Shown here in pieces: positions 14,791 through 59,900 of a DNA stretch of 64,000 nucleotides; position 1 is the stretch's first letter; every line of letters starts with the position of its first letter. The stretch comes from a virus: positions 30,286 through 94,285 of the IMG/VR virus record IMGVR_UViG_3300030012_001865. One strand, 5' to 3'. The notes beneath the pieces were generated by a model that saw nothing but the letters and a program-made list of their open reading frames with translations, made no database searches and had not been told where the DNA came from. The translations under genes were made by a program, and so were the position numbers.

Positions 14791-14979
14791 ATGAAAAACG
14801 CTACACTTACAGAATACTTACAAGCAAGGATACAAACGCTTGAGACAGAAAATAAAAAGCTTAGAAAAGATAACATTACTCTAAGTAATAATAATTCAAC
14901 TCTACTATGGAAATGTAGTGAGTTAGAACAACAAGTTGCTAACCTAAAACGAGAAAAGGTTGCAATGCAAACACGATAA
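14791..14979 (+). CDS. Small coiled-coil early protein
   Basis: 62 aa heptad pattern (LQARIQTLETENKKL). Confidence 0.6.
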   Translation: MKNATLTEYLQARIQTLETENKKLRKDNITLSNNNSTLLWKCSELEQQVANLKREKVAMQTR

Positions 14980-15044
14980 AGCATATGGTACAAGCACACT
15001 TATGTAATGGTGCTTGGCAGGTTCGATTCCTGCATGCTTTACTA
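14978..15044 (+). ncRNA. tRNA-like element lacking a D-stem
   Basis: 7-bp acceptor AAAGCAT/ATGCTTT, 6-nt linker ATGGTA, 7-bp stem CAAGCAC/GTGCTTG with 12-nt loop, perfect T-arm GCAGG-TTCGATT-CCTGC, 3' ACTA. Confidence 0.7.
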
Positions 15045-15100
15045 TGCGTAAGCATAATCAACAACAATTATTTATTAATCAGTTAAAATTTAAAAGAAAA

Positions 15101-15796
15101 ATGGCTGAACAAACTCAAACAACAGCAGTAGCTCAAGAAGTTACAAATGCAACACCAGTAAAGATTCATGGTATTGTACCAACAGTTAACCCATCAGTGT
15201 TCCAACTTATCTTACGTTCAGAGAACACAAAGCCTTCGGCAGCAGGTAGCGGACCAGAAGGATTCTCTATGTTCATGAGTACATATGCTCAAAATAATGT
15301 AGAGAAGAGAGTTAAGTATCACTCTGTAGATGCTAACTTCTTAGAAGCGTATGGTCTTGCTGAAGTTACACGTGACAACAATGGTAAACTAAAGAATGTA
15401 GAACTAAATGATGTTGACCCTGTATCAGGTGAGATGATTAGTGGTGCAGTAGAACTAAATAGTTTACTAAGAGTTAAGGATATTAAAAATCCTATCAATG
15501 GTAATTCTATTGTACCTGAGAAATTACCTGAACACAAACTAGTTGTTACCGAGACATTTACACAGAAGTTTAACAAAGATGGTAATGGTATAGTTACATG
15601 GTCTCAAAAGCCTAAGCAGAATCCTTCTACTAAAGAAGTATTGTGTAATCAAGGCAAGCCAATTTATCGCAATGTAGATCTTACATTTGATATGTCAAGA
15701 GAAGATGTATACATCAAGCATGATGGTACAGAACCTATGACACCAACTAGTAATGATCCATTTGCTAACGGTACTCCAGATGGATTGATGGGGTAA
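15101..15796 (+). CDS. Conserved crAss-like early hypothetical protein
   Basis: ATG 15101 after AAAAGAAAA (the called TTG at 15014 lies in the tRNA-like element); C-terminal NPSTKEVL...GKPIYRN motif. Confidence 0.7.
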   Translation: MAEQTQTTAVAQEVTNATPVKIHGIVPTVNPSVFQLILRSENTKPSAAGSGPEGFSMFMSTYAQNNVEKRVKYHSVDANFLEAYGLAEVTRDNNGKLKNVELNDVDPVSGEMISGAVELNSLLRVKDIKNPINGNSIVPEKLPEHKLVVTETFTQKFNKDGNGIVTWSQKPKQNPSTKEVLCNQGKPIYRNVDLTFDMSREDVYIKHDGTEPMTPTSNDPFANGTPDGLMG

Positions 15797-16629: not shown

Positions 16630-18498
16630 ATGATAAAGTTCGTAGGAAATCCAAAACTTCTTGATTGTTGCGAAGTTGTAACAATACAAGACGTAGTAGA
16701 CTATTGCAATAGTATAGATATTATTGCTGTAGATACAGAAACAACGGGTCTTAATCATATAGATGATAGTATGATTATGTTACAGATTGGCGATGACGAG
16801 CAACAGTTTGTTATTGACACCAGATGTGTAGATATAGAACCACTTAGAGATATACTAGAAGGTTATACGCTTAAGATACTACACAATGTTAAGTTCGATT
16901 ATAAGTTCTTACGACAATATAATATCAGACTTAATAATGTGTGGGATACTATGCTAACATCACAAGTTATACATTGTGGTAAAGAGTTATCACATAGTTT
17001 ATCTAATGTATTATCTAGGGAGCTTGGTATAGAGATGGACAAGAGTGTAAGAACTAATTTTATCTCTAAAGGTAGTGATGAGTTTACAGAATCTGAGATA
17101 GTATATGGTGCTAGAGATATAGAACATCTTATACAACTGTATAATAATCAACAAATTACAGTTACAAAGCACAATCTTACAAACACTGCACAGCTTGAGA
17201 ACAGAGCTGCGCTAGCATATGCAGATATAGAATATAATGGTATTGGATTAGATAAAGATAACTGGCTTAGACTTGCAAAGCAAGCAGCATATAAAGTTAC
17301 AAGTATGTGTGATATACTTGACACATTTATAGAATCTAATCCAAAGCTTAATAAGTTTGTAGATGACTATGTGCAAGGTGATTTGTTTATGGATGTATCA
17401 CAGTTGAGAAAAGTAAATGTAAAATGGTCATCACCAAAACAAGTGCTAGATGTATTTAAAACATATGGGCTTGACATAACAGATGTGAATGCTAAGAACT
17501 TAAATGTGCATAGCAAGAATGATTTTGTCAAAACATATATTAAATACAAAGAGCAGGCCAAACTAGCTACTAGTTATGGTGATAAGTTCCTTGAGAATGT
17601 AGATAGTGACGGTAGAATCCGTACAAGTTTTAAACAAATACTAAATACAGGTAGGGTTGCATCAGGTAAACCTAACATGCAGCAGATACCTGCAGACAAT
17701 GATTATCGTAACTGCTTTGTTAGTGGTGAAGATGATTATGTATTTGTATCAGGCGACTACAGCTCACAGGAGTTATGTATTATAGCCACAGGGAGTAAAG
17801 ATCCTGTGTGGATTAAGGCGTTAGAAGATGGAGAAGATCTTCATAGCGTGTGTGCAGATTTAGTTTATGGTAAAGAATGGCAAGATGCAGCAGAGCCTGA
17901 CTGTGCTTACATGCAGTCAAAAGCTAAATGCAATTGCAGTAAACACAAGAAGCTGCGCACAAATGTAAAGAGTATAAACTTCGGTTTAGCCTATGGTATG
18001 GGCCCACACAAACTAGCTGACACATTGCTTATCAGTATCAAAGAAGCAGAGAGATTAATTGCAAAATACTTTACAGCATTTCCTGCAATCAAAAACTTTC
18101 TTGAGTCTCTTGGTAATTATGGTAAGCAGAATGGGCATATCAAAACATATGCACCATATCGTCGTATCAGATGGTTTGATGCGTGGGATGGTGACAAGAC
18201 AGACAAAGCTATGATGGGTAAGATAGAGCGTGCTAGCAAGAACACACCTATACAGGGTAGTGGTGCTGACATGTGTAAGTCTGCGCTTATTATGGTGCGT
18301 GATCACATTTATGAGAACGATTTGCCTGTTAAACTAGTTATGACTGTTCACGATCAGATCGACACTATTGTACATGAGAGCTATGCTCACACATGGTGCA
18401 AAGAGTTGCGTGAGATTATGGAGAAGTCTACACTAGATATTATACCATCAGGGCTACTAAAAGCAGAAACAGAAATATCAACAGTATGGAAAAAGTAA
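16630..18498 (+). CDS. polA: DNA polymerase family A with 3'-5' exonuclease
   Basis: Exo I DTETTG, Exo II HNVKFD, Exo III YGARD; TGRVAS, PNMQQIP, motif A DYSSQEL, motif B KSINFGLAYG (Phe at the 762 position), motif C TVHDQI. Confidence 0.95.
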   Translation: MIKFVGNPKLLDCCEVVTIQDVVDYCNSIDIIAVDTETTGLNHIDDSMIMLQIGDDEQQFVIDTRCVDIEPLRDILEGYTLKILHNVKFDYKFLRQYNIRLNNVWDTMLTSQVIHCGKELSHSLSNVLSRELGIEMDKSVRTNFISKGSDEFTESEIVYGARDIEHLIQLYNNQQITVTKHNLTNTAQLENRAALAYADIEYNGIGLDKDNWLRLAKQAAYKVTSMCDILDTFIESNPKLNKFVDDYVQGDLFMDVSQLRKVNVKWSSPKQVLDVFKTYGLDITDVNAKNLNVHSKNDFVKTYIKYKEQAKLATSYGDKFLENVDSDGRIRTSFKQILNTGRVASGKPNMQQIPADNDYRNCFVSGEDDYVFVSGDYSSQELCIIATGSKDPVWIKALEDGEDLHSVCADLVYGKEWQDAAEPDCAYMQSKAKCNCSKHKKLRTNVKSINFGLAYGMGPHKLADTLLISIKEAERLIAKYFTAFPAIKNFLESLGNYGKQNGHIKTYAPYRRIRWFDAWDGDKTDKAMMGKIERASKNTPIQGSGADMCKSALIMVRDHIYENDLPVKLVMTVHDQIDTIVHESYAHTWCKELREIMEKSTLDIIPSGLLKAETEISTVWKK

Positions 18499-19664
18499 GT
18501 AGTAGGACAGAGAGGCAGCTTGAGATAGTTCAAAAGTTTGCTGATAACAAAGGTAGAGGTACATTGCTAGCAGCTACAGGCTTCGGTAAGACATTTACAG
18601 CAATCATGGTTATTATACGATTGCTAAAGTCTAGACCAGAAGGCAAGGTTGTTATTGTTGTGCCTACAATTAACCTCAAGAATCAGTGGAAGAAAGAACT
18701 TAAGAAAAGCAAGGTGCACAAGAACTGTGATGTTATTGTAATTAATACTGCATACAAAACTAAGCAGTCATGTGATCTACTAATATGTGACGAGATACAT
18801 GCGTACGGTGCGGAACAGTTTATCAAGGTGTTTGACAAGATTACATATGATTATATCTTCGGCCTCACAGCTACGATAGAGCGTTCAGATGGTATGCACG
18901 AGGTGCTACTACAGTATGCACCTGTTATTGACGAGGTAGCTATTGACGAGTGTCATGCAAATGGCTGGGTTAGTGATTACCTTGTGTATAATCTAGCCGT
19001 GCCTATGTATGATGACGAGCAAGAAGACTATGACAAAGCCAATAAGCAGTTTAGATATGCTGCAGGTAGGCTAGGTTTTGGCGGCGCGCAGTCATTTAAC
19101 AATGCACGTAAGTATCTACAAGATAAAAGTGCAGACCCAGCAATGCGTGCTGTCGCAGCTGTATATTATAATTCCATGCGTAAGCGTGGTGATATATGTA
19201 AGAACTCTCAAGCAAAGATACCTGTTATTAAACAGTTGCTTGAGAAGTTTGACGATCGCAAGGCTCTATTGTTCAGTGCATCTACAGATTTTGCAGATGC
19301 TGTACAAGAAGAGCTAGGTGAGATGTGTTTGAGTTTCCATAGCAAGCGAACCAAGAAACAACAGGTAGAAATCCTCAAGAAATTTAAGGATGGACGTACA
19401 AAACAACGTGTAATCAGCAGTGTCAAAGCTCTGAATGCAGGTTTTGATGTACCTGATTGTTCTCTTGGTATCGTGGCTGCAGGTAATTCTAAGAAACTAG
19501 ATAACATACAGCGTACAGGTCGTATCATTCGTTATGTACCAGGCAAGACAGCAGTTATTATTAATCTCTATGCACCTAACACGCAGGAAGTCTCGTGGCT
19601 TAACAAGCGACAAGAAGGACAGAATGTAGTGTGGGCTGAGAGCATAGAAGAAATTACAGTATAA
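18486..19664 (+). CDS. Superfamily 2 (DExH) helicase
   Basis: ATGFGKT, DEIH, GLTAT, GFDVP, IQRTGRIIR. Confidence 0.9.
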   Translation: MEKVSSRTERQLEIVQKFADNKGRGTLLAATGFGKTFTAIMVIIRLLKSRPEGKVVIVVPTINLKNQWKKELKKSKVHKNCDVIVINTAYKTKQSCDLLICDEIHAYGAEQFIKVFDKITYDYIFGLTATIERSDGMHEVLLQYAPVIDEVAIDECHANGWVSDYLVYNLAVPMYDDEQEDYDKANKQFRYAAGRLGFGGAQSFNNARKYLQDKSADPAMRAVAAVYYNSMRKRGDICKNSQAKIPVIKQLLEKFDDRKALLFSASTDFADAVQEELGEMCLSFHSKRTKKQQVEILKKFKDGRTKQRVISSVKALNAGFDVPDCSLGIVAAGNSKKLDNIQRTGRIIRYVPGKTAVIINLYAPNTQEVSWLNKRQEGQNVVWAESIEEITV

Positions 19665-56972: not shown

Positions 56973-59900
56973 TTATCTCTTAGAAACCCTAAATTTAGTT
57001 TTGACGTAATAGGTTTGTAATTTTCCCCCAGTCTTATTATCGTACCTTAAATTTATTTTTAAATATTTATCTCTTAATCTTAGTGGGGTACCACCTTTTA
57101 TTACTCTAGGTAAAGCAGCTTTCCAAGTTCGTTCTCTTCTTTTTATGTTTTGAATTACTTCTTCAGGTTCTTCTACCTCATCTACAGTAATGTCAGGTAA
57201 TTGCAAAGGTCCATATAAATCAGTGGCAACTATTTGGTACGAGTTTGTACACAGAAGTTTGTTCCAAGTGCCGTTTACATCACCCGATTGTCCTAAAATA
57301 TTTGTTAGTTTTGTATACATTTCTATATTATCAAATACTTTTGTTTCGGAAGGACCTTTATTTACTAAGAAAGTAATACTACTATCATAAACATCACCAT
57401 ACCAAGAAGCTCTTGGGGCTGTCAAGGATTCAATCTCATTGTGTATCCAAATTTCATTATCATGTACCCTAAATACTTCTTCTACTGCCTCATCAAACTC
57501 GTAATTTAATGGTCTTACACTTAACAATTTGTCTTGTGTATTTATAAACATAGGAGTAGCAAATGAATATTTAGAAGTAAATGAACCTGTAGTTTCACTG
57601 TAAACTAATGTTTCAGTTCTAAACAGTTCCCACCATCCTTTATCACCATCATCAACAAACTTTCTTTCTAAAAATGAGAATAATACTTCATTATTACTTG
57701 CATCGTATCCTGTAGTTATACCGTGGTATAAAAATGCATTGTCACCGTAATTAGTACCTTGTCCAGTATAACTATTATAGTTAGTAGCTGCAAACTGTTT
57801 GTTCTCTAACCTAGATTCAAAATAACTTTTTATACCTTTAACTCTAGACAATTCTAAAGTTCCCTCGTTACTAATTCTATAAGCAGCATTATTTAATATA
57901 TCTACCCAGTATAATCCTTTAGTTGTTGCTAGTACAGATCTTTGATGTTTACTACCAATTTCTGTAGACAGGTATCTATGATCTTGTATAACGTCACCTG
58001 TACCTAATATAAGAGAAGATTGGTCTGTAGTTGTTGTAACAGCTACAGGATTAATAGATAACATTCCTACACCCCTATCTTGTAAAAAGAACATGTTATC
58101 AGAAAAATTAATTATTTTATTTATAGGACCGTATTCTCCTTCTACATCTCTATAGTTATCAAGTCTAAATTCTTTCCAGCTATCTTTTAAATCTCCATTT
58201 ACTTTTATATCAGAGTATAAAACTCTAGAATCATACTGATCTGTTTCTACATAGTCTAATGTTCTAGGATAGAATTCTAATAAATCATTTTCTGCAGAAT
58301 ATACATTTTGATATATGTACTGATCTAACTGATGGTTATCAGTTTCGTTTCCTGTAAATCCTGTGTCTACATTTTTAGCTGCAAAGTGATAACCTTGTCT
58401 TAACCCTAAATTAATTGTACTCTCAACTGGTATAGCATAAGAAAAACTATGTCTCTTAGTTGGTCCACTAGTGTTATTACTATAATTATTATCAGGAGCT
58501 TGTCCACCTCTCCATTTTCGTAGTTTTTGAAAATCATAAAAACTAACAAAAATATCTCCGCCGTAAACTTCTACAGGCTCACCTTCTTGGTCTACTGGTA
58601 TAAAGCTATTTGCATTTATATATTTATTTCTACTTCTATTATCATATCCTCGTCCGCCATATTGAGTCTCCATAATATCTCTTCTCCAAGAAAGTAAAAG
58701 TTTTTCTTGCACTCTGTGCCTTTCATACGCAGCAGGATAGGCGCCGTTTGCGCATGTACATACATCTGCTGCAGTAGAACCGTCAAAATAACTTGTTGCA
58801 AGGTTGTTGTCTCCTACATCACCATCATTAAAATATATTTGATTTTGGTAAGTCTCGGCATTCCATCCTGGATCAGGTTGGTTATTAAATAATCCAGGAT
58901 TTATCCAGTAAGACCAATATGGAAAAGTTACAGCTATAGGGTTATCTTCAGTATTAGGTAAAATAACATCTCCTAACCATGTAGAACCTAACGATCCTAC
59001 GTAAGGTGTACCAGTATTAGCACGCGTACCATTACCATTAAATTGTATAAACAATGTATCACACCCAACACTATAAACATCTACATCTGTATTACCATTT
59101 ACTTCTACTCCTACGTTATTAATACCTCTAGGCAAGTTTGAGTCAAATGTTAATGATGCTCCTGAGGCCCAAAACCTAGCGTCGTTAGGTTTAAAGAAAT
59201 CTACACTTGCAAGATCATTCTCTAGAGTGTTTCCAGGGCCAAAAATATATGGCACATTTATATTTGTGTTAAAAGTAATCATTTGATGTGAGTACATTTT
59301 TCTATAATAATCATCATCTGTTCCTTCAGTCAGCCCTCCATGTAGAAAATGATTTTCCCATGCATTTCTAGAAGCACCATTAGTTAAATTACCTGCAACT
59401 TCTACCCAATCACAAGCACCTGCTGTAGGATACTCTCCTTTAAAAACAAAATCAGGAGAGTCCATACTCATATGAGTGCTCCATATCATACCATGATCAG
59501 TTCTTTCAGATGTGTCTCCATTATTATGTGCCCATGTAGCCATGTATGCACTGTGTGCTAATCTAAAAGTACTACCTATATTTTCTCCTTGGCTTGCAAA
59601 TAAATAAAGATAAGATCCCATTCCCTGCCCAAAGACAGATCTATCAATGTCAGTTCTTTCAACTCTAACTATACTATATCCTGAGACTTTATTTTTAATT
59701 GACTGCGGTAAATTAACAGTAAACTCTATACCTAAAACATATAAAGAGTGAGTGTCAATTGTATCATTTCTACCATAACCTGCGTTTAATGTTGTGTTAA
59801 TTCCTTCTGTAAAGGATACAAGCTCTCCCTCAGCACTCCAACCACTAAAAGCTGCACCGCTTTGTGATCCTGTTTCTTGATACGGCGTTCCTTGAGCAGC

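Follow-up and report, generated by a model that had tools for sequence, protein, structure and literature searches.

The stretch of DNA analysed here (the window, 64,000 nucleotides) forms the final 64 kb of a viral record of 94,285 bp, complete according to CheckV. The closest matches to its family A DNA polymerase come from crAss-like phages, and this similarity of 27-29% identity makes a Bacteroidota-type host likely. ARAGORN finds no tRNA gene in the window or in the whole genome, which also has no CCA-adding enzyme and no SmpB; any processing of a tRNA-like RNA must therefore use host enzymes. As read from its sequence, this marine crAss-like phage carries an armless tRNA-like element of 67 nt between a short upstream ORF and a series of same-strand features: a small hairpin, a leader, a gene for a 231-aa protein, three small ORFs, and then DNA polymerase A and a helicase (Table 1). 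The next start codon lies 56 nt after the element. On its other side the element overlaps the stop codon of the upstream ORF, as an earlier note on this DNA had claimed: the TAA covers the first two bases of the acceptor stem, and a cut by RNase P before A14978 would remove these two bases from it.

Table 1. Features of the locus and of related loci (plain positions refer to the window; positions after an L number refer to that locus).
Feature	Position	Strand	Description
Upstream ORF, 62 aa	14791-14979	+	from the ORF list; coiled-coil type, weak matches only
tRNA-like element	14978-15044	+	67 nt
Acceptor stem	14978-14984 / 15034-15040	+	AAAGCAT / ATGCTTT; 7 bp, no mismatch
Linker	14985-14990	+	ATGGTA; contains GG
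Third hairpin (variable third arm)	14991-15016	+	CAAGCAC 14991-14997 / GTGCTTG 15010-15016; 12-nt loop ACTTATGTAATG
T arm	15017-15033	+	GCAGG-TTCGATT-CCTGC; loop TTCGATT
Discriminator and 3' tail of the element	15041; 15042-15044	+	A15041, then CTA
Small hairpin	15043-15056	+	TATGC-GTAA-GCATA; 14 nt; starts two bases after the discriminator; unique in the genome
Leader	15057-15100	+	A/U- and CAA-rich, apparently unstructured; CAACAAC ... TTATTAAT ... AAAA motifs
231-aa gene	15101-15796	+	beta-rich protein of no known family
DNA polymerase A and helicase	16630-19664
Tandem array	L004:2547-2944		three copies within ~400 nt
Divergent copy with G3.U70 and A73	L034:1629-1725
Phage tmRNA	L101:790-1123; L103:926-1262; L104 and L105:686-1017		Rfam RF00023
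tmRNA-like tRNA domains of other phages	L106 and L149 (~2090-2190), L113, L138, L147		~85-90 nt; G3.U70, A73
Upstream block, ~200-250 nt	L015:985-1230(-), L019:434-680(-), L031:2260-2500(-), L032:2133-2380(-), L012:12239-12420(-), L087:1122-1300		CAGAGAGGTTGTC...GAAGGCTGCAGATACTTCGCCTCT...; two covarying hairpins
Second block, ~90 nt	L018:1730-1816, L020, L023:12150-12237, L024, L034:600-689		long-range pairing AAGTACAAC...GTTGTACTT
AATCCT hairpin motif	L003:2795-2845, L004:2625-2677, L029, L089:1370-1415, L090:505-550, L008:1570-1612		AATCCT, covarying 5-6-bp stem, loop TGATATAAAAC or TGATGACAAAC, then ATTTTA

The element has the parts of the top half of a tRNA. Its third hairpin takes the place at which a tRNA has its D and anticodon arms, and the third stem abuts the T stem with 0 nt between them. 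MFE folding of the element reproduces this structure in every part (-23 kcal/mol, z = -3.25); of 200 shuffled sequences, 1 folds equally well. The anatomy claimed earlier (acceptor, ATGGTA, a third stem of 7 bp with a 12-nt loop, T arm and ACTA end) is thus borne out by both the sequence and the fold.

Judged by the features that define these classes, the element is neither a tRNA nor a tmRNA nor a Y RNA. First, it shares with canonical tRNA (RF00005) a 7-bp acceptor on a 5-bp T stem with a TTCRANY-type loop, both helices covarying, but it has no D stem, and its third stem is not the 5-bp/7-nt arm of a cloverleaf. The earlier note expected weak or atypical calls from tRNA detectors. ARAGORN makes no call at the site; once its threshold is relaxed, a “tRNA-???” appears there among 43 evident false positives. 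Rfam has no match there at gathering thresholds, and the only weak one is to tRNA-Sec (22.8 bits, E = 0.03), which runs along the acceptor and T arm. Relatives score 17-22 bits on the Rfam tRNA model, against a cut-off of 29 bits. A reverse-strand Rfam match to Plastid-ycf2 (26 bits against a cut-off of 65.7) is a mirror image of the tRNA-like fold and was rejected as no real membership. Second, the tRNA-like domain of tmRNA (RF00023) is the known structure closest in form: it combines an acceptor and T arm with a D-loop analogue that has no D stem, and a variable helix stands in for the anticodon arm. The window element, in contrast, has A3-U70 with A73 rather than G3.U70 with A73, is only 67 nt long, and is without a tag reading frame, pseudoknots, the tmRNA D-loop and the GAC/GGAC motifs; the RF00023 model has no match in the window, nor around the site at E up to 10. 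Third, Y RNAs carry their tRNA-like module internally and have a Ro-binding stem made by the ends of the RNA, whereas here the ends form the acceptor stem; the Y RNA and YrlA models of Rfam match neither at gathering thresholds nor at E up to 10.

The same core is present in more than 20 related viral contigs, which were fetched with the 231-aa protein and with DNA patterns, and this recurrence, together with covariation, places the element beyond chance. About 15 distinct variants are known, and they differ only between the linker and the T arm: this interval holds nothing (44-46 nt in total), a 4-bp hairpin, a 7-bp/12-nt hairpin, a 7-bp/20-nt hairpin or inserts of ~45-60 nt. Because many relatives have the 44-46-nt form without a third hairpin, the third arm is an optional insertion. 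The earlier description of a 7-bp third stem with a 12-nt loop therefore stands for the window copy and not for the element at large, of which the stem is no defining part. Between classes, the third arm shows one compensatory change (C-G to A-U) and one change from G-C to G.U; its 12-nt loop has no antisense target in the phage genome.

A covariance model (R1) built from alignment A2 scores the window element at 88.9 bits and finds one true copy in the window as well as extra divergent copies in relatives; another, weak match at window 59242-59304 was discarded as spurious because no T loop is present there. In the family alignment (A5, 21 sequences) 95.5% of the cells are paired, against ~40-55% in slid controls, and 7 of the 12 pairs have changed on both sides. 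In a wider alignment (A6, 35 elements) 96% are paired against 65% in shuffles, every one of the 12 pairs has changed on both sides, and the covariation score is 0.80 against 0.21. Both alignments were fitted to a covariance model and are biased towards structure; the pairing signal is argued to be real all the same, since the slid controls pair much less. The alignments thus indicate a fold that is real and under selection. The earlier note had named two outcomes that would count against its reading, a structure that is not conserved and a full tRNA at this place in relatives: compensatory changes are present in both alignments, and ARAGORN finds a canonical tRNA at this place in no relative. 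The proposed non-decoding tRNA mimic with an acceptor/T elbow is upheld. The family escapes ARAGORN and has no entry in Rfam, yet it can be defined by alignment, covariance model and covariation.

Contigs of the narrow family that share only ~55-64% identity in their flanks have cores with 96-100% identity. An identical core within unrelated flanks could also reflect conservation at the level of DNA: a recombination joint for the exchange of modules (compare the promoter-stem-loop joints of T4-type phages), or the remnant of a decaying tRNA or tmRNA. The slot is indeed a hot spot, with cassettes that differ between near-identical phages (the window, L002 and L003); the end of the 62-aa ORF is kept in L002 and L003, and a different non-coding sequence follows it there. 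A full tmRNA stands at the same place in a distant lineage. But the compensatory changes and the G.U pairs on the coding strand show selection on the RNA fold and not on the DNA sequence, the canonical T loop is kept throughout, and decay would not leave 96-100% identity across diverged phages, all of which makes either form of this explanation improbable.

There was no DNA similarity among 50,697 phage records in near or distant mode, and a core-pattern scan of 185,579 bacterial and archaeal genomes gave no true copy; its hits were 3' parts of Bacteroidales tmRNA and a coding stretch for W-F-D-S-G. In the Bacteroidales tmRNA genes (L035, L038, L041, L042, L046 and other loci), AAAGCATATGGT is found ~14 nt 5' of the T arm; this 12-mer is identical to the acceptor plus linker of the phage element. 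This resemblance is not used as evidence of descent, as the number of hits is about that expected by chance for the pattern.

A wider class, the source of alignment A6, emerged from a pattern scan in which only ATGGTA and the T loop were fixed: in 16 of the 116 hits there is a 7-bp acceptor with a 5-bp T stem, both unrelated in sequence, where ~1.5 would be expected by chance. The wider class keeps the shape rather than the sequence of its stems, as one would expect if it is recognised by enzymes that read shape, such as RNase P. The four bases after the acceptor in the wider class (L168, L183, L199, L205, L222, L237, L256 and others) are mostly N-C-(T/A)-A (ACTA, ACAA, CCTA, TCTA, GCAA), differing from NCCA by one base, position 75. 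As to placement, the gap from the end of the previous same-strand ORF to the element is often 0-20 nt, and that from the element to the next start is often 6-69 nt; in L176, L247 and L261 the stop of the previous ORF abuts or overlaps the acceptor, as it does in the window.

The element is linked to one family of downstream genes. At most loci it ends 18-100 nt before a homologue of the 231-aa gene, even where the proteins are only ~25-35% identical, and in 11 of the 15 loci fetched via the 231-aa protein an R1 match lies directly upstream; some copies of the family precede unrelated small genes. The protein itself belongs to a small family (25 clusters among 1.8 billion representatives). Neither Pfam nor PHROG matches it or any of 27 relatives, a PDB profile search with it returned nothing, and so did tblastn against the 50,697 phage records. 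Its AF2 model (pLDDT 79) is beta-rich and has weak OB-type matches (SSB, LEF-3, RPA, EF-P), with Foldseek PDB E values no better than 0.17, VIA-align Z no higher than 3.1 and a single unnamed BFVD match at 4e-4; Atlas gives only a DUF669 lead on 25% of one cluster. Some homologues end in ...EDIPF, which we take to resemble the tail of bacterial SSB. From its position, the OB-type matches and these tails, it is a reasonable guess that the protein may bind ssDNA. Two marine metatranscriptomes share words with the region in three short contigs, all inside the 231-aa gene and none over the element; contigs of this kind cannot show transcript ends.

What follows the element is conserved as well. 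Relatives have the small hairpin with a changed upper stem and loop (TATGC-ATAA-GCATA, TATGCA-TAA-TGCATA, TATGCA-ATAT-TGCATA, TATGC-AATTCA-GCATA), the variation is compensatory, and the hairpin is present only on copies that adjoin the 231-aa gene family or its leader. The leader motifs recur before homologues with only ~30% protein identity and before the homologue that is linked to tmRNA. A switch in which the 3' acceptor strand would pair with the downstream hairpin (AAGCAT is present three times) was rejected, as it is not kept in relatives.

The tight, conserved linkage of a structured element, and of the unstructured A/U-rich leader after it, to one gene family is also what a cis operator would give. 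Here the downstream protein would bind the element, spread over the leader and repress its own translation. T4 gene 32 protein autoregulates in this manner from a leader pseudoknot, as does ThrRS on a tRNA-like leader, and there is a likeness to the T4 operator in the succession of structured RNA and unstructured A/U-rich leader ahead of a replication-module gene for a possible ssDNA-binding protein; the weak OB-fold and SSB-type matches and the ...EDIPF tails fit as well. The T4 element is a pseudoknot, however, whereas the phage element is tRNA-like, and nucleic-acid binding by its 231-aa protein, for which there is no Pfam, PHROG or PDB sequence match, is only putative. Moreover, the same element stands ahead of unrelated genes, and the slot is filled by a tmRNA, a 140-nt form or an unrelated hairpin in relatives whose protein is 97% or remotely identical. 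An operator is on this evidence doubtful.

These other occupants of the slot deserve attention. In a distant lineage (L101-L105) a bona fide tmRNA, with 95-107 bits on RF00023 against a cut-off of 47 bits and a tag frame that ends ...ALKAAA (read by eye), lies upstream of a 164-aa homologue of the 231-aa protein (hhalign probability 98.6%), which is followed by DNA polymerase. The tmRNA adjoins the homologue directly in L101 and L103; in L104 and L105 one small ORF lies between. Among closer relatives, G3.U70 with A73 occurs only in two divergent copies, that in L034 and a ~140-nt form in L002. Ahead of the homologous gene in L089 and L090 the slot is filled by an unrelated hairpin. Judged by sequence, the slot ahead of this gene family holds RNase P-type substrates of differing size: the mini element, larger tRNA-like forms and tmRNA. 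The comparison with the tRNA-like domain of tmRNA made in the earlier note gains some weight from the full tmRNA in the same slot, but the window element itself is without G3.U70. The mini element may descend from tmRNA; the window copy has A3-U70 and no tmRNA-specific motifs. Phage tmRNAs as such are known, from 2.3% of phage genomes (PMC9004378).

Several further structures were seen in related or other phages. Five loci (L106, L149, L113, L138 and L147) have tmRNA-like tRNA domains, with GGUUUCGAC...GGAC motifs in L106 and with no tag frame, no pseudoknots and no ARAGORN call in any of them. They look like “TLD-only” mini-tmRNAs, and the 231-aa family follows none of them; TLD-only tmRNAs exist in some mitochondria. 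A conserved non-coding block of ~200-250 nt upstream of the element matches nothing in Rfam and is possibly a structured RNA in its own right. The idea that such conserved upstream regions of 200-300 nt form one divergent tmRNA together with the element is unsupported, the Rfam tmRNA model having no match there. A second block of ~90 nt, immediately 5' of the element, is closed by long-range pairing and likewise has no Rfam match. Finally, a recurrent hairpin motif that begins with AATCCT precedes the element, or replaces it in L089 and L090, and is absent from the genome of the window.

The reading that we favour is that the element is an intercistronic cutting signal for RNase P and RNase Z, which would leave the downstream mRNA with a 5' hairpin; we give it a probability of roughly one half. 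The earlier note had suggested such an RNase P/Z signal, and the position of the element and of its relatives, wedged between same-strand ORFs shortly before a start codon, agrees with it. The element would be transcribed within the rightward early/replication message, and its RNA would fold as the top half of a tRNA, with a coaxial acceptor/T-arm helix and a linker whose GG is able to form the elbow contact. Cuts would then be made by host RNase P at the 5' edge, between U14977 and A14978, and by RNase Z or an equivalent 3' nuclease after discriminator A15041. Bacterial RNase P prefers U at position -1, and the base before the acceptor, U in most copies and otherwise C, counts for the 5' cut. 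The two cuts would uncouple the message of the small ORF from the mRNA of the 231-aa gene. The freed mRNA would start two bases before the stable hairpin at 15043-15056, which should protect its 5' end: stable hairpins near the end guard bacterial mRNAs against 5'-end-dependent decay. The A/U-rich leader behind it would suit translation in a Bacteroidota-type host. As a by-product there would be a free tRNA-like RNA of ~64 nt, which may receive CCA. Three further observations point to processing. First, the placement is punctuation-like, and it goes together with the features common to all occupants of the slot. Second, the substrates found in that slot in different phages differ and are all of the RNase P type. 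Third, a covarying hairpin and a conserved leader come directly after the copies that are linked to the gene.

A cutting signal as such does not explain everything. A core that is 96-100% identical amid diverged flanks and ~30% identical proteins goes beyond what mere cutting requires, and so do arrays of the element: ahead of the homologous gene in L004, and likewise in L005-L007, L009, L011, L021 and L026, there are three tandem copies, of which copies 1 and 2 end in an encoded ACCA and copy 3 ends in ACTA, followed by the leader hairpin. The unrelated hairpin in the slot of L089 and L090 also implies that the gene can be expressed without a tRNA-like shape ahead of it. The core conservation, the tandem arrays and the ACCA ends keep a trans-acting role alive. 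The released mini tRNA-like RNA could sequester, as sponge or decoy, some host factor by which the top half of tRNA or tmRNA is read, or it could be a scaffold that displays the variable hairpin. Candidate factors are the CCA-adding enzyme, EF-Tu, SmpB, a tRNA-modifying enzyme and, as the earlier note had suggested, a defence that senses or cleaves tRNA. Such a role would accommodate the copies ahead of unrelated genes, the variable cargo hairpin at a fixed point, and the tmRNA and G3.U70 tmRNA-like domains in the same slot or in similar settings. Against it, the window copy, with A3-U70 and without the tmRNA D-loop and GGAC, is not predicted to be charged by AlaRS or to bind SmpB. It offers no anticodon loop to anticodon nucleases, nothing in the genome is complementary to its third-arm loop, none of the neighbouring genes codes for a partner protein, and the stem sequence varies freely in the wider class. 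We consider a decoy or scaffold unlikely, although both the operator and the recombination joint are weaker alternatives than a trans-acting role. A more elaborate version, in which the mini tRNA-like RNAs arose by reduction of a phage tmRNA or tRNA gene and were kept as trans-acting, CCA-tailed top-half mimics, mRNA processing being secondary, seems somewhat less probable still. Such mimics may occupy an elbow-reading host factor or blunt a tRNA-directed defence, with the third arm as exchangeable cargo on a “tRNA scaffold”.

Processing of the kind favoured here, by RNase P and RNase Z, has counterparts in other systems. In mascRNA/MALAT1 and in the TMERs of murine gammaherpesvirus 68, a tRNA-like fold lies in a longer transcript, tRNA-processing enzymes define the ends of the neighbouring RNA, and a small CCA-tailed by-product is released. 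These are eukaryotic nuclear RNAs with full cloverleaf-like folds and no sequence relation to the phage element. Synthetic minihelices of acceptor and T arm are minimal substrates of RNase P, the CCA-adding enzyme and synthetases. They consist of a 12-bp coaxial acceptor/T helix and a T loop, and the 44-46-nt relatives are essentially the same plus an 11-nt bulge; the minihelices, however, are laboratory constructs, whereas the natural phage elements keep the GG linker and are mostly without an encoded CCA. Closest in function are the t-elements of plant mitochondria, tRNA-like structures in mRNA precursors that keep the acceptor and T arm and do not decode (Forner et al. 2007, PMC1920247). 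They adjoin coding regions and have been described as RNase P/RNase Z signals that form mRNA 5' and 3' ends, with processing mapped by experiment (PMC1920247). Like them, the phage element is a non-decoding acceptor/T-arm mimic in an untranslated part of a presumed mRNA precursor, lying between same-strand ORFs. The t-elements are organellar and unrelated in sequence, and their processing is mapped, whereas the phage element is viral and its processing is inferred; a fixed GG linker and an optional cargo hairpin set the phage family apart, as does its much higher sequence conservation. A search of the literature found no paper on armless tRNA-like elements in phage leaders.

The element family is well enough defined to be catalogued and searched for, and because it alternates with tmRNA in one genomic slot, it gives a concrete way into the question of how tRNA-like genes shrink into signals or decoys. 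To our knowledge, a tRNA-punctuation mode of gene expression is little documented for bacterial viruses. If host tRNA-processing enzymes do cut at this element, the “tRNA punctuation” logic of mitochondria would be splitting phage messages and building a stable mRNA for a major gene of the replication module.
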